Positions 45,830 through 62,551 of a DNA stretch of 64,000 nucleotides are shown here, one piece after another. The notes under the pieces were generated by a model that was not told where the DNA came from, did not search any database, and saw only the letters and a list, made by a program, of their open reading frames with translations. Source of the stretch: Bacilli bacterium (GTDB taxonomy: Bacteria; Bacillota_I; Bacilli_A; RFN20; UBA1709); NCBI GenBank assembly GCA_034115825.1, contig JAXESU010000004.1:205237-269236 (forward strand). Reading direction: 5' to 3'. Numbering within the stretch: the first letter of the stretch is position 1; the number at the start of each line of letters is the position of its first letter. The position numbers and the translations under genes are program-made.

Positions 45830-47320
45830 CTAAATTAATGGCAATAATTCATTGACCATACTTTCTAATTTATTTACATAGAATGTACGATCTTTGCCCA
45901 ATGTTGTGTCAATTTCTGTAGTTTCAACTCCAGGATCTTTGACAATTTTACTAACATTCGTACTTAGAATATTACTTCCTTTTGTAATATTTAAAGAGTT
46001 TTTAATAATATTAAAATAATTATTAATTTGATCTTCGGTAAATCCCTTGCCTATTACTAAGCCATCATGCAAAGTTAAAAAAGCTTTTGCTTCGATTATA
46101 TTGTTATTATTAATAGACAACTTACCAGAATTTTCACTCGTTCCATAAGCATTACGTGCAATTTGAATTGCATTATTTTTGTCTTCATCTTTAATTGTTT
46201 TAATAGCATTTAAATTGAATGTATTATTTTCGATACGAGAAACAATACCATCTTTATTATAAGGTAATTGGATATTAATTGAACGAACACAATCACTAAT
46301 TGTATTTCCTACAATTTCATAACTTGTTTTTGTGTTTTGAGCAAAAATAGTAAGTGGATATCTACTTTTTCCAACGTTATAAAAAGTACAATTTTTAATT
46401 ACAAAATGAGCATCTCCACTTAAACTAATACCTACATTAGAAAAAATACAATCTTCAAATACAATCGTTTGATTACTTAATTTATTATCATTAGTTAATC
46501 CAGAACTCGAATTATTTGAAACAGAAATACTTGGAGAATCTCCTTTTTCACTCATATGTGTTGATCCAAAATACTTTCCTTTTACAGTAACTGTATTATC
46601 TACTACTGATATAGTATTGGCAAAAATATTTGTAGGTACTTTATCACTTATAATACTTCCCCAACTACCATTAGCATTATTCTCCTTGTTAATAATTTTA
46701 ACATCTTCACTACTAGTAACATTGTCAAAACTTTCTTTTAAAATTAAAGTTCCATTTTCAGCATTTACATTTACTGTAGGTTTAACATTCATTTCAATAG
46801 CGTTATTATTTAAATCAAAATTATAATTTGTAATTGTATCATTTGAGACAAAATTCAATCCACTATTTACAACAACAGAAGATAATAATGCATAATTTGA
46901 GACTCCTTTTTGTAAACGAAGTGAAGAGTCTAAAGTTGACCAAAGTTTGTCACTAGTGACTTCTTTTTTATCTTCAGGATACAAAATATTACCAGTCTCT
47001 TTATCAAGTAATAAACATTCTTTACCTTCACGATAATAAGCAAAAACATAATTTTTAGAAATTGTTTTGAAATGATTAGAATTAATTCCATTTTTTTCAA
47101 TTAAAGTTATTAATTCTGGTAATGTAATATCATCATCTAAAGCTGATTCTGCTTTTAATAATGTGTTATATTGCGTACACATTTGCTCATCTACAGACTG
47201 ATTAGCTTTTTCCGTAAAGCCTAAATAACCAACAGCTGAAACTGTTGCTAAAACAGCTAGAATAGCAATAACAACTAATAATTCAACAAGCGTAAATGCT
47301 CTCTTTTTAGTCTTTTGCAT
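45830..47320 (-). CDS. Type IV prepilin-like protein with a C-terminal parallel beta-helix-like domain (496 aa, Ala at -1)
   Basis: Class III signal KKRA|FTLVELLVVIAILAVLA and a conserved GYLGFT block shared with the other pilins. C-terminal PbH1-like repeats (NCTFYNVG, GNTISDC, ENNTFNLN). Last gene of the pilus locus; a terminator hairpin at about 45803-45824 follows on the minus strand. Confidence 0.6.
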   Translation of the reverse strand: MQKTKKRAFTLVELLVVIAILAVLATVSAVGYLGFTEKANQSVDEQMCTQYNTLLKAESALDDDITLPELITLIEKNGINSNHFKTISKNYVFAYYREGKECLLLDKETGNILYPEDKKEVTSDKLWSTLDSSLRLQKGVSNYALLSSVVVNSGLNFVSNDTITNYNFDLNNNAIEMNVKPTVNVNAENGTLILKESFDNVTSSEDVKIINKENNANGSWGSIISDKVPTNIFANTISVVDNTVTVKGKYFGSTHMSEKGDSPSISVSNNSSSGLTNDNKLSNQTIVFEDCIFSNVGISLSGDAHFVIKNCTFYNVGKSRYPLTIFAQNTKTSYEIVGNTISDCVRSINIQLPYNKDGIVSRIENNTFNLNAIKTIKDEDKNNAIQIARNAYGTSENSGKLSINNNNIIEAKAFLTLHDGLVIGKGFTEDQINNYFNIIKNSLNITKGSNILSTNVSKIVKDPGVETTEIDTTLGKDRTFYVNKLESMVNELLPLI

Positions 47321-47324
47321 AAAA

Positions 47325-49016
47325 CTACTCCCCTTTTCTTAATTTTTCACTTACGCGAACAACATCACTTAATTGTTCAAATTCTTCAAAAGAAGTTTCC
47401 CCATTTAAAACTCTTTCTTTAGCATTATCTAAGATTGATTGCATTTTTTGATTTAAAATTTCATTTAATCTTTCAGTATTAAAATCATCTGACATAATTA
47501 ATTCACGCATTCTTTCATCAAGAACCATGATTTCAAAAACACCAATACGACCACTATAACCAGTATTGTTACATTTACGGCATCCTTTAGCATGATAGAT
47601 TTCAACTGGATGATCTAAACCTAACATATGCATTTCAGCTAAAGTTGTTAGACGTTTTTCTTTACATTCTGGACATAACTTTCTAACTAAACGTTGTGAA
47701 ATAGCGCCTAGCAAAGCATCAGCTACTAAGTAACGTGGAATACCCATATTAATTAAACGAGTGATAACACCTGCAACATCATTAGTGTGGATAGTTGATA
47801 AAACTAAGTGACCTGTAATAGCTGCACGTGTAGCGATATTAGCTGTTTCTTCATCACGAATTTCACCGATCATAATAACGTTAGGGTCTTGACGTAAAAT
47901 TGAACGAAGAGCGTTAGCAAAAGTCATATTAGCTTTAACGTTAACTTGAACTTGGTTAATACCAACAATTTGGTTTTCAACAGGATCTTCAACCGTAATA
48001 ATATTCGTATCTTCTTTATTTAAATAACGTAAGAAAGCATACATTGATGTTGATTTACCACTACCAGTAGGACCAGTTAGAAGGATAATTCCATGTGGAC
48101 GAGTAATCATTTGTAATACTAATTCTTGTTGACGTTTAGAAAAACCTAAAGCATCTAAATTATCACTGCTAAAGGAAACGTTATAAATACGAATAACAAT
48201 TTTTTCACCATTAATAGTTGGAATTGTTGAAACACGGAAATCATATGGAACGCCTTTAACATCTAAACTAATCTTACCATCTTGAGGTACACGACGTTCA
48301 GCAATATTCATTTCAGCCATAATCTTATAACGAGCTAAAACTGCTTGATATAATGTTACGGGAATTGAATCAACACTTAATAATTTACCGTCAATTCTTA
48401 AACGAACGCGAACTTCAGTTTCAAATGGTTCAATATGAATATCACTTGCGCCACGAGAAATAGCATCTTTTAAGATTGAGTCACAAAGTTTAATAATTGG
48501 TGCATCAATACCAATATTTTCTTTTAATTGTTCACTACTATTTTTGTTTTCATCATTATATTCAGTTAAAACTGATGTTTGTTGTGCCTTATTATCAATG
48601 TATTCTAGTAATTTAGTAATTTGACTTGGGACAACTAAAAATAGTTTAATTTCTTTATTAACATTAAAGCGTAATTCATTAATTTCATCTTTTCTAAATG
48701 GATTAGCAAAACCCATATAAATATATTTATCATCTTCACTATATGGAACTACTTGAAATTCGATTAACTTTTCTCTTGGAAAGCGATTAGCAAGTTTAAT
48801 ATCAATTTCATTTAATTGATATGCTCTTAATTCAATATGTAAAAATGAAGATAATGATTCATAGACTTTTTGTTCATCTAATACATTATTTTTGATTAAT
48901 ACTGATGATAAAGGTTCAGCATTAACATTACTACTTTGTAAATACGGTTCAACATCATTTTGATTAATTACATTATGACTTACTAAAAAGGATGCAAATA
49001 AATCATTAAAAAGCAT
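47325..49016 (-). CDS. pilB: Type IV pilus assembly ATPase (GspE/PilB family)
   Basis: 563 aa. Walker A LLTGPTGSGKST and a tetracysteine CPEC...CRKC motif. Confidence 0.85.
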   Translation of the reverse strand: MLFNDLFASFLVSHNVINQNDVEPYLQSSNVNAEPLSSVLIKNNVLDEQKVYESLSSFLHIELRAYQLNEIDIKLANRFPREKLIEFQVVPYSEDDKYIYMGFANPFRKDEINELRFNVNKEIKLFLVVPSQITKLLEYIDNKAQQTSVLTEYNDENKNSSEQLKENIGIDAPIIKLCDSILKDAISRGASDIHIEPFETEVRVRLRIDGKLLSVDSIPVTLYQAVLARYKIMAEMNIAERRVPQDGKISLDVKGVPYDFRVSTIPTINGEKIVIRIYNVSFSSDNLDALGFSKRQQELVLQMITRPHGIILLTGPTGSGKSTSMYAFLRYLNKEDTNIITVEDPVENQIVGINQVQVNVKANMTFANALRSILRQDPNVIMIGEIRDEETANIATRAAITGHLVLSTIHTNDVAGVITRLINMGIPRYLVADALLGAISQRLVRKLCPECKEKRLTTLAEMHMLGLDHPVEIYHAKGCRKCNNTGYSGRIGVFEIMVLDERMRELIMSDDFNTERLNEILNQKMQSILDNAKERVLNGETSFEEFEQLSDVVRVSEKLRKGE

Positions 49017-49031
49017 TTCTTTCTTCCTCCT

Positions 49032-50240
49032 TTAACCAATATTTTGCATAAGTGAGATAATTGGTAAGAAAATAGCTAAAATTACTACACCAACAATGAC
49101 CCCTAATGTGATTATCATTAATGGTTCTAAAGCCGCTGTTGCTTTAGTAATAGATGATTCAACCATATCTTCAAAATATCTACTAGTTGATTTTAAAACA
49201 CCTTCTAAATCACCACTTTTTTCACCAACATTGATCATTTCCGTTAACATAAGTGGGAAGATTTTGGTGTTTTCAATTGATTTAGCAATACGTTTACCAC
49301 GCTTTACTTCTTCAATTGAGTATCTAAACTTTTCTTCAAACAACTTGTTATCTAACATTTTAGAGACGTTTTCCATCGCATCAGTAATATTCATACCACT
49401 TTCTAGAAGAATAATAAATGCTTTAGTAAAACGTGAGGTAATTAAGTTTTTTTGAACGGTTCCAAGAATTGGTAAATGTAATTTTAAATAGTCTTTACTA
49501 TATTTACCACTTTCAGTTTTAAAATATAAGATTATAATTAGCACAACTGCTAAGATGGCTGGAATGATAATAAAGATATTATTAACAAAGAACTCGGAAA
49601 TGTTCATAATAACTCTTGTTAAGGTTGGGATATCTCCACCTAATTCATTAATTGTCGACTCGAATTGAGGCAAGACAAATAAAGTCATAAATAATATAAC
49701 AACAATAATTAAGACCGAAACAATAATTGGATAAACCATTGCCCCTTTAACCTTTCTTTTAATACGACGATCATTTTCATAATAATCAGCCATACTTGAA
49801 AGAACAGTATCCAAAGAGCCAGATTCTTCACCGATTGCTACCATGTTAATAAAGAAATTTGGGAATACTTTTGGATGTTTTCGAAAAGCTTCAGATAAAA
49901 TAACCCCTGACATAACATCATTATAAATTTCACTTAAAACTTTTTGGAAAATCTTACTAAATTTTTGTTTGCGTAAAACATTAAGCGAATCGGCAATACT
50001 AATTGAAGCTTTTACCATTATTGAAAATTCTCGTAAAAATGAAACTACTTCATTAAATGGTACTTTACTTCTAACCGCCAAAAAAGTATTTGGTTTTTTC
50101 TCTTTAATAACTGTCGCACTTAATAAAATATAGTTATCTCTTTTTAAAAGAGCACGTAAACTTACTTCATCATTTGCTTCTTTAACAATAATTTTATTTT
50201 GTCCTAATTCATCAAGGACTTTACAATTGTATAGTAACAA
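49032..50240 (-). CDS. pilC: Type IV pilus platform protein (GspF/PilC family)
   Basis: 402 aa. Two T2SSF repeats each followed by transmembrane segments. Confidence 0.8.
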   Translation of the reverse strand: MLLYNCKVLDELGQNKIIVKEANDEVSLRALLKRDNYILLSATVIKEKKPNTFLAVRSKVPFNEVVSFLREFSIMVKASISIADSLNVLRKQKFSKIFQKVLSEIYNDVMSGVILSEAFRKHPKVFPNFFINMVAIGEESGSLDTVLSSMADYYENDRRIKRKVKGAMVYPIIVSVLIIVVILFMTLFVLPQFESTINELGGDIPTLTRVIMNISEFFVNNIFIIIPAILAVVLIIILYFKTESGKYSKDYLKLHLPILGTVQKNLITSRFTKAFIILLESGMNITDAMENVSKMLDNKLFEEKFRYSIEEVKRGKRIAKSIENTKIFPLMLTEMINVGEKSGDLEGVLKSTSRYFEDMVESSITKATAALEPLMIITLGVIVGVVILAIFLPIISLMQNIG

Positions 50241-50241
50241 A

Positions 50242-51021
50242 TTAAATCACCAGCCTTATATAAAAATCAATTAATAAGTTGCCATATAATAGAGCAAAAT
50301 ATGTTCCGATTAATAAATATGGTCCAAAAGCAATTTCACTATCGCGACTTTTCTTCTTTAAAGAAATTAATGTAACTTCAATAATCGATCCTAGAAGCGA
50401 ACCAACTAAAATTGCTATTATTAAACATTGATAACCTAAAAGAAGTCCGGAAATAGTCATTAAAATAACATCGCCCATTCCTAAACATTCTTGTTTCATC
50501 ACTAGTTTACCAATAACTTTAATTAAGAAAAAGAATAGAAATCCAACTAACGCCCCAATTAAATAAGGCATATAATCCATTTTTAAATAAAAAACTAAAT
50601 AACTAACATAACCTAAAGTTAAGATAAAATAAATAACTTGCGTTAAATCATAAATGTAATGAGTTTGATAATCAATGCCACCAATCACTAAAAACAAGCA
50701 GACTAATAACAAGACGAATATCAAATCATAACTTAAACGGAATTGTAAAAAAGCCAATAAAAAGCTTACTCCTCCTAAAATTTCTAAAATGAAGGAAAAA
50801 TATCCAATTGGACTATGACAATAACGACATTTACCTTTTAAAATGATAAAGCTTAAAATCGGAATATTGTCATACCATTTAATTTTTTGTTTACAATGAG
50901 GACAAAATGAATCTGGTTTAACAATGCTCATTTTATTTGGAACACGATAAATAATAACCCCAATAAAGCTAGCTAAAACTGTTCCTAAAATAAAGATAAA
51001 CACACTTACTAAATAAATCAT
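50242..51021 (-). CDS. pilD: Prepilin peptidase (A24 family, PilD/ComC)
   Basis: 259 aa. CPHC...CRYC zinc site. Catalytic Asp in GGIDYQ and LGMGDV. Confidence 0.8.
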   Translation of the reverse strand: MIYLVSVFIFILGTVLASFIGVIIYRVPNKMSIVKPDSFCPHCKQKIKWYDNIPILSFIILKGKCRYCHSPIGYFSFILEILGGVSFLLAFLQFRLSYDLIFVLLLVCLFLVIGGIDYQTHYIYDLTQVIYFILTLGYVSYLVFYLKMDYMPYLIGALVGFLFFFLIKVIGKLVMKQECLGMGDVILMTISGLLLGYQCLIIAILVGSLLGSIIEVTLISLKKKSRDSEIAFGPYLLIGTYFALLYGNLLIDFYIRLVI

Positions 51022-51212
51022 TTGCTCACCTCATCGCCAACAGTTTCTTGTAATTGATTAAATCGACTATTTATAATGGCACTATAACGATAAACGGAAA
51101 TAAAAGCAGCTAAAGAAATCGTTGAGATAAAGAAAGTTAAAACAATTGTAATGATTAAGGCATAGCCTTTATTCTTTTTACGCATGATTATATCTTCCTC
51201 CTTTATCACCAT
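51018..51212 (-). CDS. Small pseudopilin-like protein lacking Glu5
   Basis: 64 aa. KKNKGYALIITIVL resembles a class III signal sequence but has no Glu at +5. Confidence 0.3.
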   Translation of the reverse strand: MVIKEEDIIMRKKNKGYALIITIVLTFFISTISLAAFISVYRYSAIINSRFNQLQETVGDEVSK

Positions 51213-51624
51213 AAACTAATTCTTTAATGATGTATCTTTCACTATTTACTTCCTTAACAAATAATTTCATTTCGGTATAGTCATCGTCATCAAAATTATC
51301 GTAAATCGCAGTCAAGATATATTTAGCATTATCACTATTAGAAGAAGGCTCATAATTACTACTATAATAAACCATAAGAGTTTTATCAACTTCATTAAAT
51401 AAATATTCACCTGACTCATAATAGCTTTCATACCATTTTTGATAATATTTGCTACTAAATGAATCTATTTCATAACAAATAGTTTCAAAATGCATATATT
51501 CACGTTGTCTTTCTTCGCCTTTAACTGATAATAAATACGTTGTTAAGACGACACCAAAAGTTATAAGAAAGATAACTGATGCAACGATAACTTCAATTAA
51601 AGTCATCCCTCTTTTTTTCATCAT
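51178..51624 (-). CDS. Minor (pseudo)pilin
   Basis: 148 aa. KKRG|MTLIEVIVASVIF class III signal with Glu5. Confidence 0.55.
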   Translation of the reverse strand: MMKKRGMTLIEVIVASVIFLITFGVVLTTYLLSVKGEERQREYMHFETICYEIDSFSSKYYQKWYESYYESGEYLFNEVDKTLMVYYSSNYEPSSNSDNAKYILTAIYDNFDDDDYTEMKLFVKEVNSERYIIKELVYGDKGGRYNHA

Positions 51625-52769
51625 AATTTAATACCTTTCAAACGATAATGACTAAAATCAATATTATAATCAAGTCTTGTTAAACCATTAGTAATTGATG
51701 ATAAATCATATTCTTTGTCACTAGCATAAATGTAATTAGTAATTTTACGTTTTTCTAATTCAAATTCATGCTTAGCAATAATTGATAAATATTGACTAAT
51801 GATATCAGTTTCATCATTACATTCAAAACTATAGAAAGTTACTAATTTACCATTAAATGAATTCATTAATGTACATAGATTGTTTTGTACATAAATTAAT
51901 GCAAAATCTTCTTTAATATCATTTTTAATGTTATCAAATAAATAATTGCCCCATAAATTATAACTATTAATACTAACACCTAAAATTTTAGCAACTTTTT
52001 TAAAATAATTAATAATTGCTAAAGGAACAAAGTAAGTATAATAAACACTACCTAATTTATGTTCATACAAATGTTCAAAAGTTACATATTTGTCTTTAAA
52101 ATCAGGGAAATCATTTTTAATTTCTTTTTGATAAAGTTTAATTGCTTTACTTTTACTCATCTTTGGTAATGAAATAACACTTCTAAAACATTCATCAACA
52201 CTTAATAAGATATCAAGAGTTCCTAATTTAGAAACGTTCGCTTTAATTAAATCAGTAACAGCATCAATATTAGCAAAAACACCATTAACAATTGAAAAAG
52301 TTGAAACATTTAAATTAACTTCTTCTTTTAATAATCCTTTTTCATAACGAGATAACTTTAAACTAGGTGTTCCAATGTTATTGAAAAATAAGACTAAACG
52401 ATCTTTTTTATCATAAACAACTTTTTTATTAGGTTTGATTTCTTTAACATCGTTTTTTACTTCTTCTTTAATTTCTTTTGTTTCTTCTTTGACTTCAGTA
52501 ACTTCTTCTTTACTTTCTTCTTTTATCTCTTCACTACTTGCAACTTCAACAGCTTGCTTAACAACTTCTTCTTGATGCTCTTCAATTATTTCTTCTTTTT
52601 TACTCTCTTGATGAGCATCAATTTCTCTTTGTAATTCTTTATTGATTTTTATTTCTTTTTGCTTATCCTTTTTCCTAAAGTAGTTAATTGTCGCAACATA
52701 ACTAACTGGAATAAAAACTAATAAAATAACCGCAACAATAAAAATAATTAAATACAAATCTTTATTCAT
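51621..52769 (-). CDS. Putative pilus assembly protein (PilM-like actin-fold region behind an N-terminal TM helix and a Glu/Lys-rich coiled coil)
   Basis: 382 aa. N-terminal hydrophobic helix, then a KEE-repeat region, then a roughly 250-aa domain in the position a PilM/N/O component would occupy. Assignment by context and weak similarity only. Confidence 0.35.
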   Translation of the reverse strand: MNKDLYLIIFIVAVILLVFIPVSYVATINYFRKKDKQKEIKINKELQREIDAHQESKKEEIIEEHQEEVVKQAVEVASSEEIKEESKEEVTEVKEETKEIKEEVKNDVKEIKPNKKVVYDKKDRLVLFFNNIGTPSLKLSRYEKGLLKEEVNLNVSTFSIVNGVFANIDAVTDLIKANVSKLGTLDILLSVDECFRSVISLPKMSKSKAIKLYQKEIKNDFPDFKDKYVTFEHLYEHKLGSVYYTYFVPLAIINYFKKVAKILGVSINSYNLWGNYLFDNIKNDIKEDFALIYVQNNLCTLMNSFNGKLVTFYSFECNDETDIISQYLSIIAKHEFELEKRKITNYIYASDKEYDLSSITNGLTRLDYNIDFSHYRLKGIKL

Positions 52770-52909
52770 AATTTACATTCTCCTATTTCTTATTTATACT
52801 TTTTCTAACTAGTCTATTGACAATTAAATAACTAATTGGTAACAAAATAATCAACGTAACACAAAAAACAAATATGAATAAATAAAAATCTTTTAGCATA
52901 AAAGTCCCC

Positions 52910-53353
52910 CTATTCACAACAAGTAAAAACTAAACTATCTTCACCATATGAACCATTAAATTTAATTGTATATGTAAATTCATGAACAATACTTCCATTA
53001 TTGTCTACATTACGACAAATGATTTCGATAACTGTAATTCGATCACACTTAATCAAATTTTCTCCATTGTACATAACTGAATCATCATTAATTTTATAAC
53101 TATACAATTGAAGTTCATCAATAACATCAATAATATCTTTATTCTCTTCGTATATTTCATGTGTGTGATTAATCATATGATCTTTAATAGCCAAAATTTT
53201 TAAATTAGTACTAGCATCAGTAGTTACCTCATTAGAAACTTTTGATATAAAAAAAACCGAGGATACAAGTGTTAAAATCATAATAGACGCACTAGATATT
53301 GTTACAATTAATTCTATTAACGTCATACCTTTTTTCTTTTTCACTCTTATCAC
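52910..53353 (-). CDS. Minor (pseudo)pilin
   Basis: 147 aa. KKKG|MTLIELIVTI class III signal with Glu5. Confidence 0.55.
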   Translation of the reverse strand: MIRVKKKKGMTLIELIVTISSASIMILTLVSSVFFISKVSNEVTTDASTNLKILAIKDHMINHTHEIYEENKDIIDVIDELQLYSYKINDDSVMYNGENLIKCDRITVIEIICRNVDNNGSIVHEFTYTIKFNGSYGEDSLVFTCCE

Positions 53354-53434
53354 CTCGCTATTATCTATTATAATGTTACCCCTTATTAACCCTATATGTC
53401 AACAAATATATTTTTATATAAAAATATAAATAAA

Positions 53435-53465
53435 AAAATCACCCTCATAAAGAGAGTGATTTGAG
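53435..53465 (-). terminator. Intrinsic terminator immediately after the 149-aa pilin gene
   Basis: Minus-strand ATCACTCTCTTT-ATGAGGGTGAT hairpin followed by UUUUUUU. Confidence 0.4.
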
Positions 53466-53478
53466 ATAATAAAACTAA

Positions 53479-53928
53479 TTATTTTGAGCCAACGATTTCG
53501 TCAGTAGCTAAAGTCCAAGTTGCTTTTGCTGATTCAATTTTATAGACAATTGAAGTTAAAGTACCATCTGAAGCAATCTCAGCATCAATAACAGAACCAT
53601 CTTGTTTTGATAATTCAAAATATTTTTCAAGTGCTTTATCTAGTTCTTCAGAAGTAGTAGCATTTTCAGCACCTTTTTTTACAACAACTTTATTTGGTTC
53701 AGTCATTGTGAATGTATAACCTTCAATAACTTCTTCACCATCTGCTAAACCTGCAACTAACATCGTTTTGTATTGAGTTAATTCCGTAACTGCCTTAGAT
53801 TCTCTAGCATTTTGAGTAAAACCTAAATAACCAACAACTGAAACTGATGCTAAAATAGCTAAAATAGCAATAACAACTAATAATTCAACTAATGTAAAAC
53901 CTTTTTTCTTATTTTTTCTGTTAATCAT
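53479..53928 (-). CDS. pilA: Type IV pilin (candidate major pilin, 149 aa)
   Basis: KKKG|FTLVELLVVIAILAILASVSVVGYLGFTQNARESKAVTELTQYKT. Small size and its own terminator suggest the major subunit. Confidence 0.65.
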   Translation of the reverse strand: MINRKNKKKGFTLVELLVVIAILAILASVSVVGYLGFTQNARESKAVTELTQYKTMLVAGLADGEEVIEGYTFTMTEPNKVVVKKGAENATTSEELDKALEKYFELSKQDGSVIDAEIASDGTLTSIVYKIESAKATWTLATDEIVGSK

Positions 53929-54062
53929 TTTAATTTTCTCCTCCTGTTAACATAAAAAACGTAGACTATTCATATTTGTCGCATTATTTATAAAAGTCCG
54001 CTTTTTTATTATAGTAATTTTTTATAAATATGTCAAATATGTTTTTTCTTATTAGGATTACA

Positions 54063-54527
54063 CTATTTTTCAACAGCAGTTATTTCATCATTGATTATAT
54101 CCCATGTTGCAATAGCTTTGTCAGTAATATACTTCAATTCAACAAGTCTACCATTTACCTCAGAGTTATCAATTTTAGTATTTAAAACATGAGCATTTTT
54201 ATTAGAAATATCTATATCAAAATAATCTACTAATGCCAAATATAAATCGTCTATTGGTTCCCCTAGTGTTGATATCTTTTTAGTTATAATAATTTTATTA
54301 GTTTCAGGCATTGTAAATGTAAATGAACCAATTTGTTCTTTTCCATCAGCCAAATCCGCTATCAATTTTGTCTTATATTGTGTAAGCTCGCTAATAGCTT
54401 TTGATTCATTTGCTTTTTTTGTAAAAGCTAAATAACCTAGAATAGATGCTGATGCTAATATAGTTAATATAACTATTACAACTAATAACTCAACTAATGT
54501 AAATCCTTTGTTTCTTTTTTTACTCAT
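54063..54527 (-). CDS. Type IV pilin paralog (154 aa)
   Basis: NKG|FTLVELLVVIVILTILASASILGYLAFTKKANESKAISELTQYKT. The C-terminal ATWDIINDEITAVEK parallels ATWTLATDEIVGSK of the 149-aa pilin. Confidence 0.65.
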   Translation of the reverse strand: MSKKRNKGFTLVELLVVIVILTILASASILGYLAFTKKANESKAISELTQYKTKLIADLADGKEQIGSFTFTMPETNKIIITKKISTLGEPIDDLYLALVDYFDIDISNKNAHVLNTKIDNSEVNGRLVELKYITDKAIATWDIINDEITAVEK

Positions 54528-54676
54528 CTTCTATTGCCTCCAATCAAAAAATATGTTTGTTTTTTCAATACTTTTTCGATTTTTTATTCTATATGAATTA
54601 AATAGTAAAGTCAAGCAATGTGATAATAATTAATCAAATAAAAAATAGAGGTTAGTTACCTCTATTCTTTATAAAA

Positions 54677-55639
54677 TTATTTTTCATCATTGTAATTAAC
54701 GTTGATTACACCAGTTAATTTATAGTAGGCTGTTTCAATTTGTTTTTTAACGTTTTCTAAATCCTCGTCATTTCTAACAGTAATCTTAATTGGTTTCAAT
54801 TTTAATGGTTCTAAACCATTACCAACTTTCAATTTACCCATTTTAAATTTAACGACTAATGTATTTTGTTTAATGCTAATTAAAGCCAAAGTTTTTCTTT
54901 GACCAACTCTAATTCTTTGATCATAATCATAATTATTAATATTAGTATTTTCAAAATCTAAAGCATAATTTACGATCTCATCATAATATTTTCTTTGAGC
55001 AACATTTAATCTTTCAAAAGAAACAGCAAATTTTTCTTTTTCGGCTACACCAATCTTTTTAACATTACCTTCTTCTTCTAATTCTTCATCATCGAATTCA
55101 TTCTTTACGACAACCTTTTCAACTGTTTGAACAGTTGTAGGTGTTGGCTCTTTAACTGCATATATTGCAGAATAGAATAGTGCTACTAACATATAAATAG
55201 CTACACCTACTATCATTGATACTAAAAACCATATTGATAAAGAAACAGCAAATACTTGACCAACATAAGTTAATGCTTTGGCAAAAGGAAGCTTACTAGC
55301 AAATGATCCAGTTCCAACTAAACCAATAACAAGACCAACAATAATTGCAGCAACTAATCTAGAAATCTTTAATCCTTGATTTTTAACATAACTAACTTCA
55401 ACCATAATAAATGCAACAATTAATCCTATACCAAAACTCATTACTGCTAAATAGTTAGCAACAGTTGGATGTAAAACAGGCATTCTTAAAATTGCACGTG
55501 AAATTGCTTGAAATACATTTGATTCACCTAATAAATGTAAATCATAATCTAATGCAAATGCAGTAAATGCAAATAAAAATGTGTAAAATAAACTAAGAGT
55601 AACGTATAAAATATTTCTTCTACATACTTTTTTATTCAT
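54677..55639 (-). CDS. Membrane protein of unknown function inside the pilus locus
   Basis: 320 aa. Five transmembrane segments, then an acidic linker and a soluble C-terminal domain of about 140 aa. Confidence 0.3.
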   Translation of the reverse strand: MNKKVCRRNILYVTLSLFYTFLFAFTAFALDYDLHLLGESNVFQAISRAILRMPVLHPTVANYLAVMSFGIGLIVAFIMVEVSYVKNQGLKISRLVAAIIVGLVIGLVGTGSFASKLPFAKALTYVGQVFAVSLSIWFLVSMIVGVAIYMLVALFYSAIYAVKEPTPTTVQTVEKVVVKNEFDDEELEEEGNVKKIGVAEKEKFAVSFERLNVAQRKYYDEIVNYALDFENTNINNYDYDQRIRVGQRKTLALISIKQNTLVVKFKMGKLKVGNGLEPLKLKPIKITVRNDEDLENVKKQIETAYYKLTGVINVNYNDEK

Positions 55640-55837
55640 ATATATTCCCCTTTCATTAGTAAGTAAAAAAATTATTAAGTAACGTATTTAAATAAAATTA
55701 TTTTTGTCGATATATAATTATTAAAAATACATTAACTATCTAGGTATATATTAAAGTATAATCAAAATAGTGTCAATAAATTATAATAAAAAGCACGAGA
55801 AATCAGATTAAAAAATCTTTTTTTCTCGTGCATAATA

Positions 55838-57004
55838 TTACTTAATATTTAAATTAGAAAAAACAATACCTCTATTAACATCTTCAATTGAGTTATATGT
55901 GTTCCATAAGTATCTGAATCCACCAATATTAGCGATTTTATTAACATGATCTCCAGATTTTTCGTAATTTGCTACCTTAATATCATAATGTATTGTATCG
56001 CCAATAACTTCCAATTTCATAGATACAGTAACTTTTGAATTATTTATTTCTTCACCATCACGCAAAATAACAGCTAAATTTCCTTTTCCCCAATTTCCAG
56101 CATCATCAGAAAAACAGTTTGTCATAGGAGCTAAAGCATAATATTTATCATTACTTTTTGCTAATCCAACCATTATTTCTGTATTTTGTGATCCATTAGT
56201 GCCATTAAAACCTAATGAAAATTGTACATTATCATTATTCTCCATACTTGATAAATCTAAATCAAATGAAACAGTTGTAGCACTGCCATCCCAATCTAAA
56301 TTTTTATCAGTTTCGGTAAAATAAGTGGTTGGACCTGAACCATCATTATCTTTTGCAATTTTAATGCCATTATCAACAGCTAATACTTTTCCGTATTCTA
56401 AAGGAGTTTTAAAAACATCTTCTAGAGTATCGTTATTAATTTTCTTAGCTTCAATTTCATGATAAGAATTGCCACATGCATCACATTTATATTCAACATC
56501 GCCATTTACAAATGGTTGAACTGAAACATTTTTTACTTCTTTTAATTTGTGTTGATGTTCTGAAGATACTTCATCGCTAATAACATTCCATGTTGCATAT
56601 ACATTATCATCAATGCTATAAACTATTTCATCAATAATAAATTTTTCATCTTCGTTTGTAACCTTGAAGAAGAAATCAGCATCATCATCAGCTTCAACAA
56701 AAGAAATAAATGCATCTTCTAAACTACCTTTATATAGCATCATTTCAATTCCTTTATCACTTTTAGAAACTAATGCTACTTTTCCTTCTTCATTTGAAAT
56801 TACCTTATTTCCAGTAACTAAATTTGCTGTAGCTACTGTTTTATATTGTGTAAGTTCAGTTAATGCTTTAGATTCTTTCGCACGACTAGTAAAACCTAAA
56901 TATCCAACTACTGAAACACTTGCTAATACCGCTAATATTGCGATAACTACTAATAATTCAACTAATGTAAAAGCTTTACGTTTAATTTTTTTCATTTTTT
57001 TCAC
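55838..57004 (-). CDS. Type IV prepilin with an extra C-terminal domain of about 240 aa (388 aa, Ala at -1)
   Basis: RKA|FTLVELLVVIAILAVLASVSVVGYLGFTSRAKESKALTELTQYKT. The pilin core ends near ...YATWNVISDEVSSEH. An additional Cys-containing domain follows. Confidence 0.6.
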   Translation of the reverse strand: MKKMKKIKRKAFTLVELLVVIAILAVLASVSVVGYLGFTSRAKESKALTELTQYKTVATANLVTGNKVISNEEGKVALVSKSDKGIEMMLYKGSLEDAFISFVEADDDADFFFKVTNEDEKFIIDEIVYSIDDNVYATWNVISDEVSSEHQHKLKEVKNVSVQPFVNGDVEYKCDACGNSYHEIEAKKINNDTLEDVFKTPLEYGKVLAVDNGIKIAKDNDGSGPTTYFTETDKNLDWDGSATTVSFDLDLSSMENNDNVQFSLGFNGTNGSQNTEIMVGLAKSNDKYYALAPMTNCFSDDAGNWGKGNLAVILRDGEEINNSKVTVSMKLEVIGDTIHYDIKVANYEKSGDHVNKIANIGGFRYLWNTYNSIEDVNRGIVFSNLNIK

Positions 57005-57067
57005 CTCTAAAATAATTGTATAACTCTTATGTCAACAATGTCAACCTTAAAAAGTTATATAGTATAT

Positions 57068-57100
57068 AAAAATGGACTAAATCAATTAGTCCATTTTTAA
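57068..57100 (-). terminator. Hairpin TGGACTAA-ATCAA-TTAGTCCA with flanking T-runs on both strands, overlapping the stop of the Lgt-like gene
   Basis: Perfect 8-bp stem read from the sequence. It separates the giant-pilin/Lgt-like pair from the 388-aa pilin gene. Confidence 0.4.
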
Positions 57101-57748
57101 TCTTTTTTCGCGAACTTTTTTCACAATAATAATTATAATTCCTAATATAATAGAAACTATAGACCAAAGTTGGCCTATGCTAATTAAATCAAATAGCAAG
57201 TTCCAGTGGAATCTAAAAAATTCAATTACAAATCTACAAGTCCCATAAACTATCAATAAATATGGGTAAGAATATCCATTAATAAATCTATTAAAGACGA
57301 GAATAGTGACAAAAATTATCAATGCTATTCCAGCTTCAATTAATTGTATAGGTACTTGATATCCATTAATTTCAATACCATAACAACATCCTTCGATATA
57401 ACAACCTATTTTCATAAAAACTAGCATTAGCATATGCAAAGGAGTTATCAAATCCAATGTTTCTATAAAGTCTAGTCTTCTAATCTTTGAATAAATAAAT
57501 GGGATTAAAGATAATGAAAATATTGTACCGTAGAATGAAACACCAGTATACGCGAATGATAAAGCTTCAATAGAAGCAAATATCGCTGCAAATATATAAG
57601 CAAAAATAATTTGCAAAATTGTAAGAATCAAACCATCAATAATGGAATATCCATTTTTTTTAAATATTATTGTGAATGTTATTATGGATATTACTGCTCC
57701 TATAAAATACATTCCTAGTGAGGAAATAAAATTAAACATTAAAAACAT
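57086..57748 (-). CDS. Divergent prolipoprotein diacylglyceryl transferase (Lgt)-family membrane protein
   Basis: 220 aa, about seven transmembrane segments. YGTCRFVIEFFRFHWN matches the Lgt block GYGAFRIIVEFFRQPD. ISIGQLWSIVSI matches ISMGQILSIPMI. The canonical Lgt signature GRxGNFxNGE is replaced by GCYIEGCCYGIE, and the His of GMSFHGG appears as Tyr (TGVSFYGT). Comparison was made against the E. coli Lgt sequence recalled from memory. Confidence 0.5.
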   Translation of the reverse strand: MFLMFNFISSLGMYFIGAVISIITFTIIFKKNGYSIIDGLILTILQIIFAYIFAAIFASIEALSFAYTGVSFYGTIFSLSLIPFIYSKIRRLDFIETLDLITPLHMLMLVFMKIGCYIEGCCYGIEINGYQVPIQLIEAGIALIIFVTILVFNRFINGYSYPYLLIVYGTCRFVIEFFRFHWNLLFDLISIGQLWSIVSIILGIIIIIVKKVREKRLKMD

Positions 57749-57759
57749 AAACTATTCCT

Positions 57760-60405
57760 TTAATTTAAGATAGTTTCATTAAAATATGAATTACCATCTC
57801 TTGTAGCATATACCTCAAAGTATCCTACATTATAAACAGATTCTTTTGTTGTCTTCTTCCAATTAACTTCACCATCAACAAAGATTACTTCGCTCATTTG
57901 CTTTGAACTTAATATCTTACCATTAAAACCACACTTACCAGATATAACTAACTTACCATCAATTTTAATTAGTGCATCTTGTTGATATTTATTAAATGTT
58001 AATGAGTTTCCTTGACTATCAAAATATTGATTATATCCATAAATTGTATCATTTTTAGATGGCTTTTGTGTATTATTCTCAGCCCATTGATAAGCAACAA
58101 GTCCAGAATTATCCAATTTTAATATACCACCATCTTCGACAGTTAAAGATGATCCAGGCATCATCTTTACACCTGTAGGATCGCCTTCATCATTAGTGGT
58201 TATATCTAATTGAGCTCCATTTTTAACAACAACATCATATAGTCCACTTATTGGCATTTCAACCTTACTTGTATTAGCCGCAATTTCTGTAGGAGGACAA
58301 CTAATATTAATACCCATATATAATTTATCTACTATAGAAGTTCCTTTTGTAATTTCTAACAATGTTCTATTAGTTGACTTATTATGATAATAAGTTATTT
58401 CATTTCCAGAATTCATTTTGAATATTGCTTCATATTGATTTGAATCATTATTTGGAGCAATAACATTTGCAATCATTGCTGCTTTAATCTTAGCACTATT
58501 AACGTGAATTAATAATTGTGCTTTAAATATAGAATTATATTTAAATAAAGTTTTAACAAAAAGACCATCCATGTAATAAGTTCCAAATTGAAATACGTTA
58601 TTAGTCAATTCCTTTGAATAAGTTCCTCCATTAAAGGAATCTGTAACCATCATGCCATACAAAGTGGCACCAGAACCAATAATTAATCTTTGAACATCAT
58701 CATTGCTAGAAATAACGCCATAATTCACAAGTTTACTACCACTTCTAATAGTTAATAATCCTTTTGAATTTAATGTTAGTTGGCCATAATTTCCAACCAA
58801 TTGAGACGACTTTTCTGTTGAGTTACCTGCATAGTGATATCCACCAACAAACACATTACCATCAACATATAATTTTGCATCAATATTTAAATTTGAATAC
58901 ATATTTAAAGGATTGTTGTCACGTGTATACCATGCTGCATCTTGAGTAAATGGCTCTTTGACATTATCATACTTGATTGTGTCATTATCAATCATAGGTA
59001 CTCTTAAAATATCTTTACTTTCTAAAACAACATCTCTATTTATTACTCCATCTTTACCCAAGACATATAATTCTTCTTCAATGCCATTATTTGCATATTC
59101 AATGGCATCATTAATATCAAAATACTTGTCACCGATTTTTACATTTGGTGTTACATTTTCAAACATTACATAAATTTTTAATCTACCATTTTCGTCAGTT
59201 AAAAATTCATCACCAGCATCTATTGTGTGATAATAAATACTTGTTGGTAGCCCATCAAGAGTTACCTTCTTCTCAATAGAAATATAGTCATCTGATGGAT
59301 TATATTTCCAACCAACAAATTTGTTTGCAATCTTTGTATCACTGCTAGGGACAAACATATCATATGCTGAAATTTCAACACTTTCTTTTGTATATTCAAC
59401 GACAGTTGTTTTTGCTTCACTTCCGTTAACATATGACACAAATACTACTTCTTTTACAGCATTTTTTCTATCTGTATTAACAACAATATTAGATGAAATT
59501 TCTTTCCAACCTTTTGCATTTAGCATATCAATAAATTCTTGTGAAGAAATTACTGTTGAATTATCAACTAATTTTTTCAAAGAATCATATGCATTATCAT
59601 CAATTGTTTTAACATTTGATGGAATATCAACAATTCTAATTTTACGACTAGAAATTTTATCAACAGTTGTTTTATTTAAATTAACTACATTTTGACTAAA
59701 AATAGCGTATCTTTTAGGTTGAGTGTTTTCATCAATAAATTCACTATTACCTTCATTATTAGCACCAACAAACGAAGCATTGTTAACAAGTGTGCTTAAT
59801 GTACTATATACGCTAACACCTGTATCATTCATATCGTTAGCTTTACTAAAACCATTAATTGTTTCTAATGCTTTTGTAATATCACTGTAAGACTTTGGAT
59901 TTCTAATTGTATTTATTGCATCAGCAAATCCATCTCTAGATGATTTACCTATTAATAAATAACCATCAATAAAACTTTCAGGTGCATAGATTAAATCATC
60001 AATTGTTCCAAAAGTTTCTACTCCATATGTACTTGATTTAGAATCATCTTCAGGATAAACCTTTTTATAACCATTTTTATCAAAATCACCTAATTCTACT
60101 CTATTTGTGTTTGTGTTATAGAATAAATAGGCATTTTTTGATTCTGTTTTAAGTTCAAATCCTTTTTCTTCTAAATTTTCAACTATTTCAACTGCTGCAA
60201 CAGGACTATCTGTATAAGCTTGTTCTGCTGCAAGAACATGGTTAATGTTACTAACTAATTGAATATCTTTTGATCTTCTTGCATTTTCAATAAAGCCAAG
60301 ATAACCAACAGTAGAAACAGTTGCAAGAATAGCTAAAATAGCAATTACAACTAATAATTCAACAAGAGTAAATGCTTTTTTGCCATTTTTCTTCTTATTA
60401 AACAT
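57760..60405 (-). CDS. Giant type IV prepilin-like protein (881 aa, Ala at -1) with a large beta-rich C-terminal domain
   Basis: GKKA|FTLVELLVVIAILAILATVSTVGYLGF N-terminus. About 830 further residues with Gly/Asn/Thr/Ser-rich repeats suggestive of parallel beta-helix/adhesin folds. First gene of the locus. Confidence 0.6.
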   Translation of the reverse strand: MFNKKKNGKKAFTLVELLVVIAILAILATVSTVGYLGFIENARRSKDIQLVSNINHVLAAEQAYTDSPVAAVEIVENLEEKGFELKTESKNAYLFYNTNTNRVELGDFDKNGYKKVYPEDDSKSSTYGVETFGTIDDLIYAPESFIDGYLLIGKSSRDGFADAINTIRNPKSYSDITKALETINGFSKANDMNDTGVSVYSTLSTLVNNASFVGANNEGNSEFIDENTQPKRYAIFSQNVVNLNKTTVDKISSRKIRIVDIPSNVKTIDDNAYDSLKKLVDNSTVISSQEFIDMLNAKGWKEISSNIVVNTDRKNAVKEVVFVSYVNGSEAKTTVVEYTKESVEISAYDMFVPSSDTKIANKFVGWKYNPSDDYISIEKKVTLDGLPTSIYYHTIDAGDEFLTDENGRLKIYVMFENVTPNVKIGDKYFDINDAIEYANNGIEEELYVLGKDGVINRDVVLESKDILRVPMIDNDTIKYDNVKEPFTQDAAWYTRDNNPLNMYSNLNIDAKLYVDGNVFVGGYHYAGNSTEKSSQLVGNYGQLTLNSKGLLTIRSGSKLVNYGVISSNDDVQRLIIGSGATLYGMMVTDSFNGGTYSKELTNNVFQFGTYYMDGLFVKTLFKYNSIFKAQLLIHVNSAKIKAAMIANVIAPNNDSNQYEAIFKMNSGNEITYYHNKSTNRTLLEITKGTSIVDKLYMGINISCPPTEIAANTSKVEMPISGLYDVVVKNGAQLDITTNDEGDPTGVKMMPGSSLTVEDGGILKLDNSGLVAYQWAENNTQKPSKNDTIYGYNQYFDSQGNSLTFNKYQQDALIKIDGKLVISGKCGFNGKILSSKQMSEVIFVDGEVNWKKTTKESVYNVGYFEVYATRDGNSYFNETILN

Positions 60406-61176: not shown

Positions 61177-61298
61177 TTAAGGTTATCCTTTTTATTAACT
61201 TACTGCATTAAATAAAAATAATTATTATTTGACTATCACAATCCATTTGGTGTATAATATAAATGCCCTACAAAATAGGGTATTAAGAAGGTGGATTG

Positions 61299-61706
61299 AT
61301 GGCAGTTTCTTATATTGTTATTCCAAAGCAAATTGATGAGATATTTAAAAATTTTAAAAATAAAAATCCATTCAACTTAAAATCTAGACTTAAAATAATT
61401 AAAAAAAAGTATAAAAATATTGATGATGATTCTTTTTATGAAAAATTAATTTTAGAAATTAATACATGTTGTAAAAACGGTAAAAGTATTGTTATTTATA
61501 GTAGCCCGATTAATAACAAAATCAATATAATTAAGTTTAGAATGAAAGATTCTTCTATTCCTTTTGGAAAAAGTTACGGATGGAGACTAATCGCCTTGCT
61601 TGATGAGGTAAATGATCTATTTTACTTACTTGATATTTACTCTCATTCGGAAGGAAAAGATAATATTGACGCGAACGAAAAAAAAAGTATTAAAAAAAAT
61701 TTGTGA
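61299..61706 (+). CDS. Putative RelE/ParE/HigB-superfamily toxin
   Basis: About 135 aa. The C-terminal GWRLIALLDEVNDLFYLLDIYSHSE resembles the RelE-fold consensus yRiiY...v.il.i.hR. Immediately upstream of an XRE antitoxin-like gene. Assignment is tentative. Confidence 0.35.
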   Translation: MAVSYIVIPKQIDEIFKNFKNKNPFNLKSRLKIIKKKYKNIDDDSFYEKLILEINTCCKNGKSIVIYSSPINNKINIIKFRMKDSSIPFGKSYGWRLIALLDEVNDLFYLLDIYSHSEGKDNIDANEKKSIKKNL

Positions 61707-61745
61707 TGAATATGTAGATTGTTTATAGAGTGGAGGTATATAAAC

Positions 61746-62153
61746 ATGACTAAATTAAATATTAATGCAATCAAAAAGAATTCTTTTCAAGTTATTGAAA
61801 ATGACTATTCTTATATTGATAATGCATATTTGAGAAATTTTAGAATGAAATTAAAAATGAGCCAATCACTATTTGCTAATTATTTAGGAGTATCAAAAAA
61901 AGCTATCGAAAAGTGGGAAAAAGAAGGTAATAATATCAATCCTCTTGTCAAACGCATGGTCTTTTTAATCGAAAAAGATCCTAAGATTCTTTCACTCTTA
62001 ATGGAAGTTAAAATGCCTAAACCAATTTATGAAACTCATTCATATAAGACATTTGAATTTAACGAAATTGAGAACGAAAATAGAATAAATATCAGTAAAC
62101 CTAAACATAGTTTAGAATGTAGACAATATACTACATCTTTTGGGAGGATATAG
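61746..62153 (+). CDS. XRE-family helix-turn-helix protein (HigA-like antitoxin candidate) with a C-terminal extension of about 55 aa
   Basis: Start at MTKLNINAIKK (ATG at 61746, RBS GGAGG). HTH MSQSLFANYLGVSKKAIEKWEKEGN. An extra C-terminal tail follows the HTH core. Confidence 0.5.
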   Translation: MTKLNINAIKKNSFQVIENDYSYIDNAYLRNFRMKLKMSQSLFANYLGVSKKAIEKWEKEGNNINPLVKRMVFLIEKDPKILSLLMEVKMPKPIYETHSYKTFEFNEIENENRINISKPKHSLECRQYTTSFGRI

Positions 62154-62155
62154 TT

Positions 62156-62551
62156 ATGAGCACAAACCTATATCATTTTTTAGGATATAAAATACTAGAA
62201 ATAAGATATAAGAATAAAAATAATGATAGTTCTTATATTACTATTAGCGTACCACAAGATAACTATAACAAGAAAAAAAGTATATATTCTTTTTTAATAA
62301 AAATAACTACTGATTTTGGAAATGATGATAATTATTTTTTATTTCAAGCTGATTTTGAAATTTATAACATAGATGAATTTAATAATTTTGAAAGCAATGA
62401 AAAAAAAGCATATTTCCTAAGAATTGTATTCCCATTTATTCGAGAAAAAATATTTTCAATCACATCAGATACAGATCAGGGATTATTGCTGCCAACAATC
62501 GATATAAGAAACTTTAATTTTGACTGTGAATTAAAATTAATTAAGGCATAA
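62156..62551 (+). CDS. Hypothetical protein (third gene of the putative TA module)
   Basis: 131 aa, no recognisable motif. Translationally coupled to the preceding gene (2-nt gap). Confidence 0.25.
   Translation: MSTNLYHFLGYKILEIRYKNKNNDSSYITISVPQDNYNKKKSIYSFLIKITTDFGNDDNYFLFQADFEIYNIDEFNNFESNEKKAYFLRIVFPFIREKIFSITSDTDQGLLLPTIDIRNFNFDCELKLIKA

Follow-up and report, generated by a model that had tools for sequence, protein, structure and literature searches.

Lgt, the prolipoprotein diacylglyceryl transferase, is regarded as a single-purpose housekeeping enzyme and as an antibiotic target. Here we describe a gene for a short Lgt-like protein that lies directly behind the gene for a giant modular type IV pilin in a Bacilli bacterium metagenome-assembled genome (MAG). 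The analysis covers 64,000 nucleotides (nt) of the 274,736-nt contig JAXESU010000004.1, referred to below as the window (G+C content, 27.5%); coordinates are collected in the table. The Lgt-like protein carries the GenBank name prolipoprotein diacylglyceryl transferase. An earlier sequence-only reading of this DNA had predicted the open reading frame (ORF), and a complete ATG-started frame is indeed present on the minus strand. The same reading correctly placed it right behind the pilin gene, although the spacer measures 11 nt rather than the 12 nt given there. The spacer contains a Shine-Dalgarno-like sequence, a terminator-like hairpin overlaps the stop codon of the Lgt-like gene, and a promoter-like sequence lies beyond the hairpin; on these grounds the two genes are predicted to be co-transcribed as a two-gene unit, as had been proposed, and the Lgt-like gene is probably translationally coupled to the pilin gene. 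The hairpin has a 14-bp stem and a predicted folding energy of -16.1 kcal/mol (z = -5.06; 0 of 200 shuffled sequences fold as well), is followed on the minus strand by the U-rich UUUUUAUAUA, and is 100% conserved in the related locus L004. The promoter assignment is a consensus match only, and promoter-like sites are no commoner in this AT-rich region than in shuffled sequence (69 observed, 66.5 expected).

Features of the window and of related loci (positions in the window unless a locus is named; aa, amino acids)
Feature	Position	Strand	Remarks
Giant modular type IV pilin gene	57760-60405	minus	881 aa; matches to prepilin N_methyl and TIGR02532
Pilin C-terminal region used as query	57763-59208		482 aa
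Spacer between pilin and Lgt-like genes	57749-57759	minus	11 nt; coding strand TAA-AGGAATAGTTT-ATG
Shine-Dalgarno-like AGGA	57759-57756	minus	7 nt before the ATG of the Lgt-like gene
Lgt-like gene	57086-57748	minus	220 aa, ATG start; MDY4788922.1
Terminator-like hairpin	57067-57099	minus	overlaps the stop codon of the Lgt-like gene (57086-57088)
Sigma-70-like promoter, TTGACA-18-TACAAT	57044-57015	minus	11/12 match; precedes the next pilin gene (57004-55838)
Hypervariable cassette	57175-59850	minus	C-terminal part of the pilin plus residues 1-191 of the Lgt-like protein; from sliding DNA identity
Rest of type IV pilus cluster	45830-57004	minus	
Modular pilin gene	45830-47320	minus	496 aa; N_methyl match
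Minor pilin gene	52910-53353	minus	147 aa
Terminator-like hairpin	53462-53436		
Sigma-70-like site, TTGACA-17-TATAAT	54036-54008	minus	12/12 match
Predicted lipoprotein gene	29957-30643	plus	lipobox LTAC, MKKRYLLAALLCGLVLTAC followed by G; hypothetical protein
Predicted lipoprotein gene	36222-37142	minus	lipobox FTSC, MKKFFLMFIMIFSLFGFTSC followed by N; thioredoxin family
Module of three small ORFs	61296-62551	plus	resembles a toxin-antitoxin-chaperone module
Prepilin protein gene, L102	14248-10565	reverse	1228 aa
Big_3 membrane protein gene, L102	10565-9960	reverse	202 aa
Lgt-like gene, L102	9960-9262	reverse	
TMEM164-family membrane protein gene, L102	9262-8516	reverse	
Tandem Lgt-like genes, L008	6278-6937; 7001-7666		behind the 1575-aa giant
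Genes with the N-terminal G-[FY]-[AS]-[AS]-W motif, L009	3208-7016		
Genes with the N-terminal G-[FY]-[AS]-[AS]-W motif, L118	1813-5065		same genes in L131

The protein was assigned to the Lgt family in the sequence-only reading, and database searches agree. It matched the Pfam LGT model (PF01790) with 76.4 bits (cutoff 24.9, E = 2.8e-21) over residues 13-209, and Escherichia coli Lgt (5azb/5azc) was its sole sequence relative in the PDB (E = 6e-6). An AlphaFold 2 (AF2) model, built on an alignment of 41 members of the clade defined below, has seven long transmembrane (TM) helices, with a pLDDT of 92.5 and a pTM of 0.87, and in a Foldseek search of the PDB 5azb was its only match at E <= 0.001 (E = 1.4e-5, probability 1.00, TMq 0.70). 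The TM layout claimed earlier is therefore retained in the model, and the conserved Lgt blocks quoted at that time were reproduced in the HMMER alignment to 5azb, which pairs YGTCRFVIEFFR with YGAFRIIVEFFR, ISIGQLWSIVSI with ISMGQILSIPMI, and FMKIGCYIEGCCYG with GAGRLGNFINGELWG, and TGVSFYGT with GGMSFHGG. Together, sequence and model identify the protein as a divergent Lgt-family member with a predicted Lgt fold. Relative to E. coli Lgt, which shares the seven-TM fold, it is shorter (220 rather than 291 residues), and the periplasmic head is shrunk to a hairpin, so that the TM4-TM5 connection comprises 14 residues (120-133) compared with approximately 45. The Lgt proteins of S. aureus, E. faecalis and H. 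pylori have small heads too, and the substrate specificity of Lgt is influenced by the head domain (PMC13251419). The protein also falls far below the NCBIfam equivalog cutoffs (34.7 versus 118.9 for TIGR00544 and 57.4 versus 334 for NF000778), and its gene is not located beside the signal peptidase II gene, lspA, but is coupled to the giant pilin gene instead.

Active-site residues were mapped using the HMMER alignment to 5azb and an hmmalign table. Counterparts of E. coli G99, G104, D129 (D99 in the Lgt-like protein), G145 (G115), G150 (G120), G154 (G124), P197 (P133), Q199 (Q135), E202 (E138), Y235 (Y168), R239 (R172), E243 (E176) and R246 (R179) are kept, whereas H103 is replaced by Y73, R143 by K113, N146 by C116, E151 by C121 and L152 by C122. 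Y14 is the putative counterpart of Y26, on the basis of an E. coli sequence that agrees with the 5azb fragments in the alignment. The residues of the phosphatidylglycerol pocket are thus present as D99, K113 (for R143), E138, Y168, R172, E176 and R179. Around the altered positions the protein reads M-K-I-G-C-Y-I-E-G-C-C-Y-G, which does not match the Lgt signature G-R-x-G-N-[FY]-x-N-x-E-x2-G. Residues described as absolutely required in E. coli Lgt are Y26, H103 (for which Y, W or F is tolerated in nature), R143, N146, G154 and R239 (PMC13251419, PMC4728403). Among these positions the Lgt-like protein has Y14, Y73, G124 and R172, with K113 and C116 in place of R143 and N146.

The replacement of the canonical signature by a Cys-rich one, which the sequence-only reading had singled out, is real but not special. 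Characterized Firmicutes Lgts carry a GNFxNxE-type signature, and N146 to C and E151 to C or D substitutions have been described in more distant Lgts, including those of L. interrogans (N146C) and M. smegmatis (MSMEG_5408, N146C) (PMC13251419); the Cys-rich form is, moreover, the rule among the nearest homologs and present in lspA-linked Lgts, as set out below. The altered His region TGVSFYGT does place a Tyr at the H103 position, yet Tyr is the usual residue there in Firmicutes Lgts (PMC13251419, mBio 2026). The altered signature is mostly a known variant, and the notable features are instead the absent head and the Lys at the R143 position, the latter because R143K, like R143A and R143E, is inactive in E. 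coli Lgt (PMC4728403).

An HMMER search of 1.84 billion representative proteins (clusters at 50% identity) returned 2,458 matches at E <= 1e-3, with 321 at E <= 1e-10, mostly from gut metagenomes, and one below 1e-30. We performed a signature census on the best 149 representatives, leaving out the close relative P0004. C-x3-x-C-C was present in 147 of the 149 and GNFxNxE in none; the R143 position was occupied by Lys in 71 and by Arg in 76, and the median length was 229 aa. We defined a clade of short Lgt-like proteins by a length of approximately 205-250 aa, the motif [K/R]-x2-C-x3-G-C-C-x-G, a short TM4-TM5 loop and an adjoining gene, on the same strand, for a large secreted protein; the protein studied here has all of these features. 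In the 41-member alignment, with a mean column identity of 32%, G74, C116, C121, C122, E138, Y168 and R179 are invariant, and G120, G124, P133, Y161, G169, R172 and F173 are conserved in at least 90% of members, a pattern that argues for a preserved pocket rather than a decaying enzyme. Metagenomes screened with a degenerate DNA pattern for C-x3-GCC-x-G-x8-P-x-Q-x2-E yielded 25 true family members and viral contigs none, and tblastn against plasmids and phages found only a distant full-length Lgt on an E. eligens chromid and on unannotated faecal phage contigs.

The Cys signature alone is no argument for a new activity, because it is also found in Lgts encoded directly after lspA. This arrangement was seen in L083, L103, L122 and L101 (Pfam-confirmed in L083, L122 and L101), and a gene for an RluD-type pseudouridine synthase comes next in L083, L103 and L122 (Pfam-confirmed in L122). 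All four of these short Cys-type proteins have Arg at position 113, and they are probably ordinary, housekeeping Lgts. In a neighbor-joining tree, constructed without support values, genes linked to giant secreted proteins were placed apart from both the lspA-linked and the full-length Cys-type Lgts.

The giant pilin begins with a prepilin signal and a pilin module, and residues ~423-771 form a large all-beta region that we call domain X, which is also present in giants linked to other Lgt-like genes (L009, L118 and L140). Full-length homologs of the giant pilin were found in L001, L004 and L010. Pfam, NCBIfam and PADLOC revealed nothing in it beyond N_methyl (PADLOC likewise had no match for the Lgt-like protein), a profile search of the PDB with its C-terminal part gave no match, and a single-sequence AF2 model of the C-terminus was unusable (pLDDT 31). 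A protein homolog search with the C-terminal 482 aa returned nothing, not even the query itself, although the searched collection contains the full protein, which probably reflects the limit of a word pre-filter rather than uniqueness. The four giant pilin alleles share no invariant Cys and have none near the N-terminus, and the Cys positions of L010 do not correspond. Acylation of a pilin Cys, a possibility raised in the sequence-only reading, is not supported for the giant pilin in view of this lack of an invariant Cys, and the classical thioether reaction on the pilin is accordingly unlikely.

Nine independent lineages of the short clade had readable genomic context. In all nine, the gene for a large secreted protein (419-1794 aa, or cut by a contig end) adjoins the Lgt-like gene or is separated from it by one small ORF; the two genes share a strand and usually overlap or lie within a few nt of each other. 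Three close relatives (L001-L004), with Lgt-like proteins of 57-66% identity, have homologous giant pilins upstream. In L010/L011 (G+C 0.28) the Lgt-like protein is 33% identical and is encoded beside a 896-aa prepilin protein that aligns with the window pilin over its full length (28-31% identity, E = 3e-75); this pair is followed by asnS and permease genes, with no pilus genes. L102, a human-gut contig with a G+C content of 0.50, has four overlapping genes in the order prepilin protein, Big_3 membrane protein, Lgt-like protein and TMEM164-family membrane protein, and the first ~130 aa of its giant are homologous to residues 6-124 of the window pilin. In eukaryotes TMEM164 is a phospholipid acyltransferase; two lipid-enzyme-like membrane proteins thus stand behind one giant pilin at this locus. 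L140 (G+C 0.45) encodes a 419-aa prepilin protein, the Lgt-like protein and, after it, a protein with a Sec signal (at least 543 aa) that resembles residues 423-635 of the window pilin, within domain X.

In the L009 and L118 group of gut contigs (G+C 0.26-0.28), the giants (1040 and 843 aa) contain domain X behind a non-pilin N-terminus; they are homologous to each other (E = 4e-41) and weakly similar to residues 514-771 of the window pilin (E = 3e-5 to 3e-8), and each is preceded by a ~230-aa protein that shares its N-terminal motif. This motif, ...G-[FY]-[AS]-[AS]-W-[ILV]-[IFV]-x-[NG]..., ends a signal-like hydrophobic segment. In the Oscillospiraceae/Clostridia MAGs L006, L007 and L008, giants of 1471, 1794 and 1575 aa, respectively, are followed by the Lgt-like gene and then by LRR_5 adhesin-like proteins; here the analogous N-terminal motifs are ...AFARY or ...AYGRY in small proteins and ...SFAWLTIS..TTIAANGNLEIALA in the giants. 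No NCBIfam model matched the proteins with either type of motif, and the motifs may represent a specialized signal class for an undescribed fibre or adhesin system, reminiscent of SipW/TasA-type signals. L008 has two tandem Lgt-like genes, which shows local duplication within the sub-family. The remaining lineages comprise L137, in which the Lgt-like gene is followed by a gene for a 1007-aa LRR_5-like protein; L074, in which two lipobox proteins flank the Lgt-like gene, the upstream one being 617 aa long; and L108, with an upstream ORF of at least 357 aa that is cut by the contig end.

What all lineages have in common is therefore a class of neighbor, a very large protein that is exported and has a hydrophobic anchor at its N-terminus, and the low-G+C lineages additionally share the pilin module and domain X. 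No giant neighbor was found beside the full-length 289-aa Cys-type Lgt (L005) or the lspA-linked Lgts. Only ~5% of the ORFs in the window reach 600 aa, and by a rough estimate a giant neighbor in nine of nine lineages is very unlikely to have arisen by chance.

A second line of evidence comes from comparison of the window with the closely related loci L001, L002/L003 and L004. The flanks are 95-100% identical in DNA sequence between these strains, including the downstream pilin genes and the giant pilin gene up to codon ~180-450, where the 5' ~550-1350 nt are 97-100% identical. Inside the cassette, the remainder of the pilin gene is 44-68% identical in DNA sequence and the Lgt-like gene 61-77%, and the Lgt-like protein is only 57-66% identical between these otherwise near-identical strains. 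The left breakpoint lies at ~59850 relative to L001 and at ~59050 relative to L004, whereas the right breakpoint is constant at ~57175, where ~90 nt of the Lgt-like gene remain; from there identity returns to ~100%, and the window, L001 and L002 encode Lgt-like proteins with the same 29 C-terminal residues. Because only the left breakpoint differs, the Lgt-like gene always travels with the C-terminal region of the pilin. The association with giant pilins pointed out in the sequence-only reading thus extends beyond this locus, both through pairs that are ~30% identical in other lineages and through co-variation within the cassette. Synonymous divergence (dS) between the Lgt-like alleles is 0.7-1.5, and the ratio of nonsynonymous to synonymous divergence (dN/dS) is 0.20-0.43, indicative of purifying selection. 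These values suggest old alleles that have been kept functional, and the cassette fits a cognate pairing of pilin and Lgt-like protein. The mosaic structure of the pilin gene looks like the result of allelic replacement or of diversifying selection on a pilus-tip adhesin. The degenerate enzyme that had been considered before is contradicted by the invariant polar residues and by dN/dS of 0.2-0.4, and a pseudo-enzyme was rejected on the clade conservation and dN/dS.

Taken together, these observations lead us to favor, at about even confidence, an accessory Lgt-family enzyme that would be functionally coupled, or genetically dedicated, to the giant modular pilin of the gene directly before it. 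We infer that the cell does not use it as its general lipoprotein diacylglyceryl transferase. In the mechanism that we propose, the outer leaflet of the membrane would be the site where the Lgt-like protein works on the giant pilin or together with it, while the pilin, coming out of Sec, is waiting in the membrane. Most likely, this would amount to a phosphatidylglycerol-dependent covalent modification, or else a lipid-dependent maturation or retention step, and the acceptor would be something other than a conserved pilin Cys. The pocket of Lgt opens at the outer-leaflet side, and its lateral clefts admit phosphatidylglycerol and a signal-peptide-like helix (PMC4728403). A hydrophobic helix at the N-terminus keeps the giants in the membrane while their bulk lies outside, and a phosphatidylglycerol-dependent step is favored because this geometry could be reached by an enzyme with an Lgt fold. 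In a broader and rather doubtful extension, the short, head-less Cys-signature proteins would constitute a new class of protein-modifying enzyme that transfers a phosphatidylglycerol-derived lipid or glycerol group onto giant pilins, fibre proteins or adhesins at a non-lipobox, non-Cys site, and so would form a lipidation or anchoring pathway devoted, in gut Firmicutes, to the adhesins at the tips of type IV pili and related filaments.

Several points weigh against a pilin-dedicated enzyme. No acceptor residue or motif was identified in the giant pilins. The window encodes at least two proteins with a good lipobox, so the organism needs some Lgt activity, which this Lgt-like gene could supply; neither a second lgt nor lspA was seen within the 64-kb window of the 274,736-nt contig. 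Mere linkage within a recombination cassette could explain why the gene co-varies with the pilin C-terminus. The context sample is small, and its loci were partly picked for their long contigs. Finally, hhalign detected no similarity between the Clostridia giants and the Bacilli giant pilins, and since the former show no detectable homology to the window pilin, a giant neighbor is a loose common denominator.

The most substantial alternative, which we consider possible though unlikely, is that the gene encodes the functional and perhaps only Lgt of the organism, a Cys-signature, small-head variant that sits behind a pilin gene and hitch-hikes in a variable cassette. The protein passes the Pfam LGT gathering score, is named Lgt in GenBank and keeps every pocket residue outside the signature; genuine Lgts with N146C or E151C, or with a small head, have been described (PMC13251419), other organisms encode short Cys-type Lgts with this motif between lspA and rluD, and the lipobox proteins of the window, where no other Lgt is encoded, agree with such a role. 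The recurrence of the giant neighbor in lineages that are ~30% identical and have different flanks is hard to explain in this way, however, and the tandem duplicates in L008 also speak against it, as does the divergence of the protein to 57-66% identity between strains whose flanks are 95-100% identical in DNA sequence. A housekeeping role is also difficult to reconcile with Lys in place of R143, given that R143K is inactive in E. coli (PMC4728403) and that all lspA-linked examples have Arg, with scores far under the NCBIfam equivalog cutoffs, or with nearest relatives that are not Bacilli-type GNF Lgts. The protein might instead be a non-catalytic or lipid-binding membrane partner whose lateral clefts hold the N-terminal helix of the giant and which serves pilus or fibre assembly as a chaperone, retention or hand-over factor with no transfer reaction. 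The absence of an acceptor Cys in the giant pilins, the R143 to K change and the missing head domain would all suit this role, as would the variety of N-terminal hydrophobic signals among the neighbors (prepilin, G[FY][AS][AS]W and SFAWL types). We nevertheless consider it improbable, as the buried polar and charged residues E138, Y168 and R179 and three Cys are invariant, and R172 is at least 90% conserved, in an alignment with 32% mean column identity, and conservation of that kind is typical of an active site or specific ligand pocket and not of a helix-binding groove.

The conserved N-terminal part, divergent C-terminal part and co-varying small downstream gene in near-identical strains also recall a polymorphic toxin/immunity or receptor-variation cassette, in which the pilin C-terminus would be an effector or diversifying adhesin and the membrane protein its cognate protective or specificity factor. 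Immunity genes switch family with their toxin, whereas here the downstream gene comes in every case from one enzyme-like family whose pocket is invariant; searches with Pfam, NCBIfam and PADLOC gave no toxin or defence domain, and the variable region consists of ~400-700 aa of beta-rich, adhesin-like sequence. We therefore regard this last explanation as highly improbable.

Elsewhere in the window, the remainder of the type IV pilus cluster encodes a 388-aa pilin, a 320-aa membrane protein, three pilins of ~150 aa, a 382-aa protein, minor pilins, a prepilin peptidase, a PilC-like T2SSF protein, a PilB-like T2SSE ATPase and a 496-aa modular pilin. The gene for the latter follows that of the PilB-like ATPase and has no Lgt-like gene beside it, so not every large pilin of the cluster has such a partner. 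Near-consensus sigma-70-like sites stand in front of individual pilin genes, as seen on the minus strand at 53373-54036 and 57015-57044, which, together with a terminator-like hairpin, suggests that the pilin genes may be transcribed separately and not as one long operon. The 147-aa minor pilin, with homologs in L001 and L002, has four conserved Cys and a conserved ...FTCCE end; the Lgt-like protein of L006 ends in ...DDCCE, a likeness that may be coincidence. On the far side of the giant pilin gene, three small ORFs resemble a tripartite toxin-antitoxin-chaperone module: a 136-aa protein with no Pfam match, a 144-aa HTH_3/MqsA-like antitoxin and a 131-aa SecB-like protein with a PADLOC match to PD-T4-9_C. 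L001, although 98% identical otherwise, lacks the ~1.4-kb segment that contains them and has a different ORF, of 194 aa, in its place.

Membrane enzymes that decorate pilins on the outer face are known from Neisseria, in the phospho-form transferases PptA and PptB and in O-glycosylation by PglL/TfpO, and some of the decorations are phosphoglycerol, probably derived from phospholipid. The arrangement proposed here would be alike in concept, as a membrane enzyme encoded with or for pilins, although there is no kinship in sequence or fold (the Neisseria enzymes are of the alkaline-phosphatase or O-antigen-ligase type). A parallel in gene placement is provided by plasmid-borne lgt copies beside conjugation lipoprotein genes, which likewise stand next to the genes of their presumed dedicated substrates (PMC13251419); the partners there are lipobox lipoproteins, whereas the giant pilin bears a prepilin signal and lacks a conserved Cys. 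Compared with the homologs of that study, including the Cys variants with which it has the N146 to C and E151 to C/D substitutions in common, the present clade is shorter, and half of its members have Lys at the R143 position. The giant pilin itself resembles the modular type IV pilins of monoderm bacteria such as PilB and PilC of S. sanguinis, in which a pilin module is fused to a large extra module (PMC8179133), and by this analogy it would presumably serve as an adhesin displayed on the tip of the pilus. At 881 aa it exceeds the largest example cited in that survey (860 residues), its extra module is without a Pfam signature, and the survey describes no dedicated membrane enzyme for modular pilins (PMC8179133).

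In the literature that we searched, no link was found between Lgt homologs and pilins or giant adhesins. What is new, as judged from sequence and gene order, is an apparently distinct and widespread sub-family of Lgt with a conserved genomic partnership. Should the Lgt-like gene prove to be the organism's only Lgt, the finding would reduce to an unusual position of a known Cys-variant enzyme. The existence of a cassette formed by the pilin C-terminus and the Lgt-like gene suggests that a pilus-tip adhesin is under diversifying selection in gut Bacilli. If the partners of the sub-family are giant pilins and adhesins and not lspA, the Lgt fold would have been recruited for another job, and the protein described here would, if this is true, represent the first dedicated accessory enzyme for the modular type IV pilins of monoderm bacteria.

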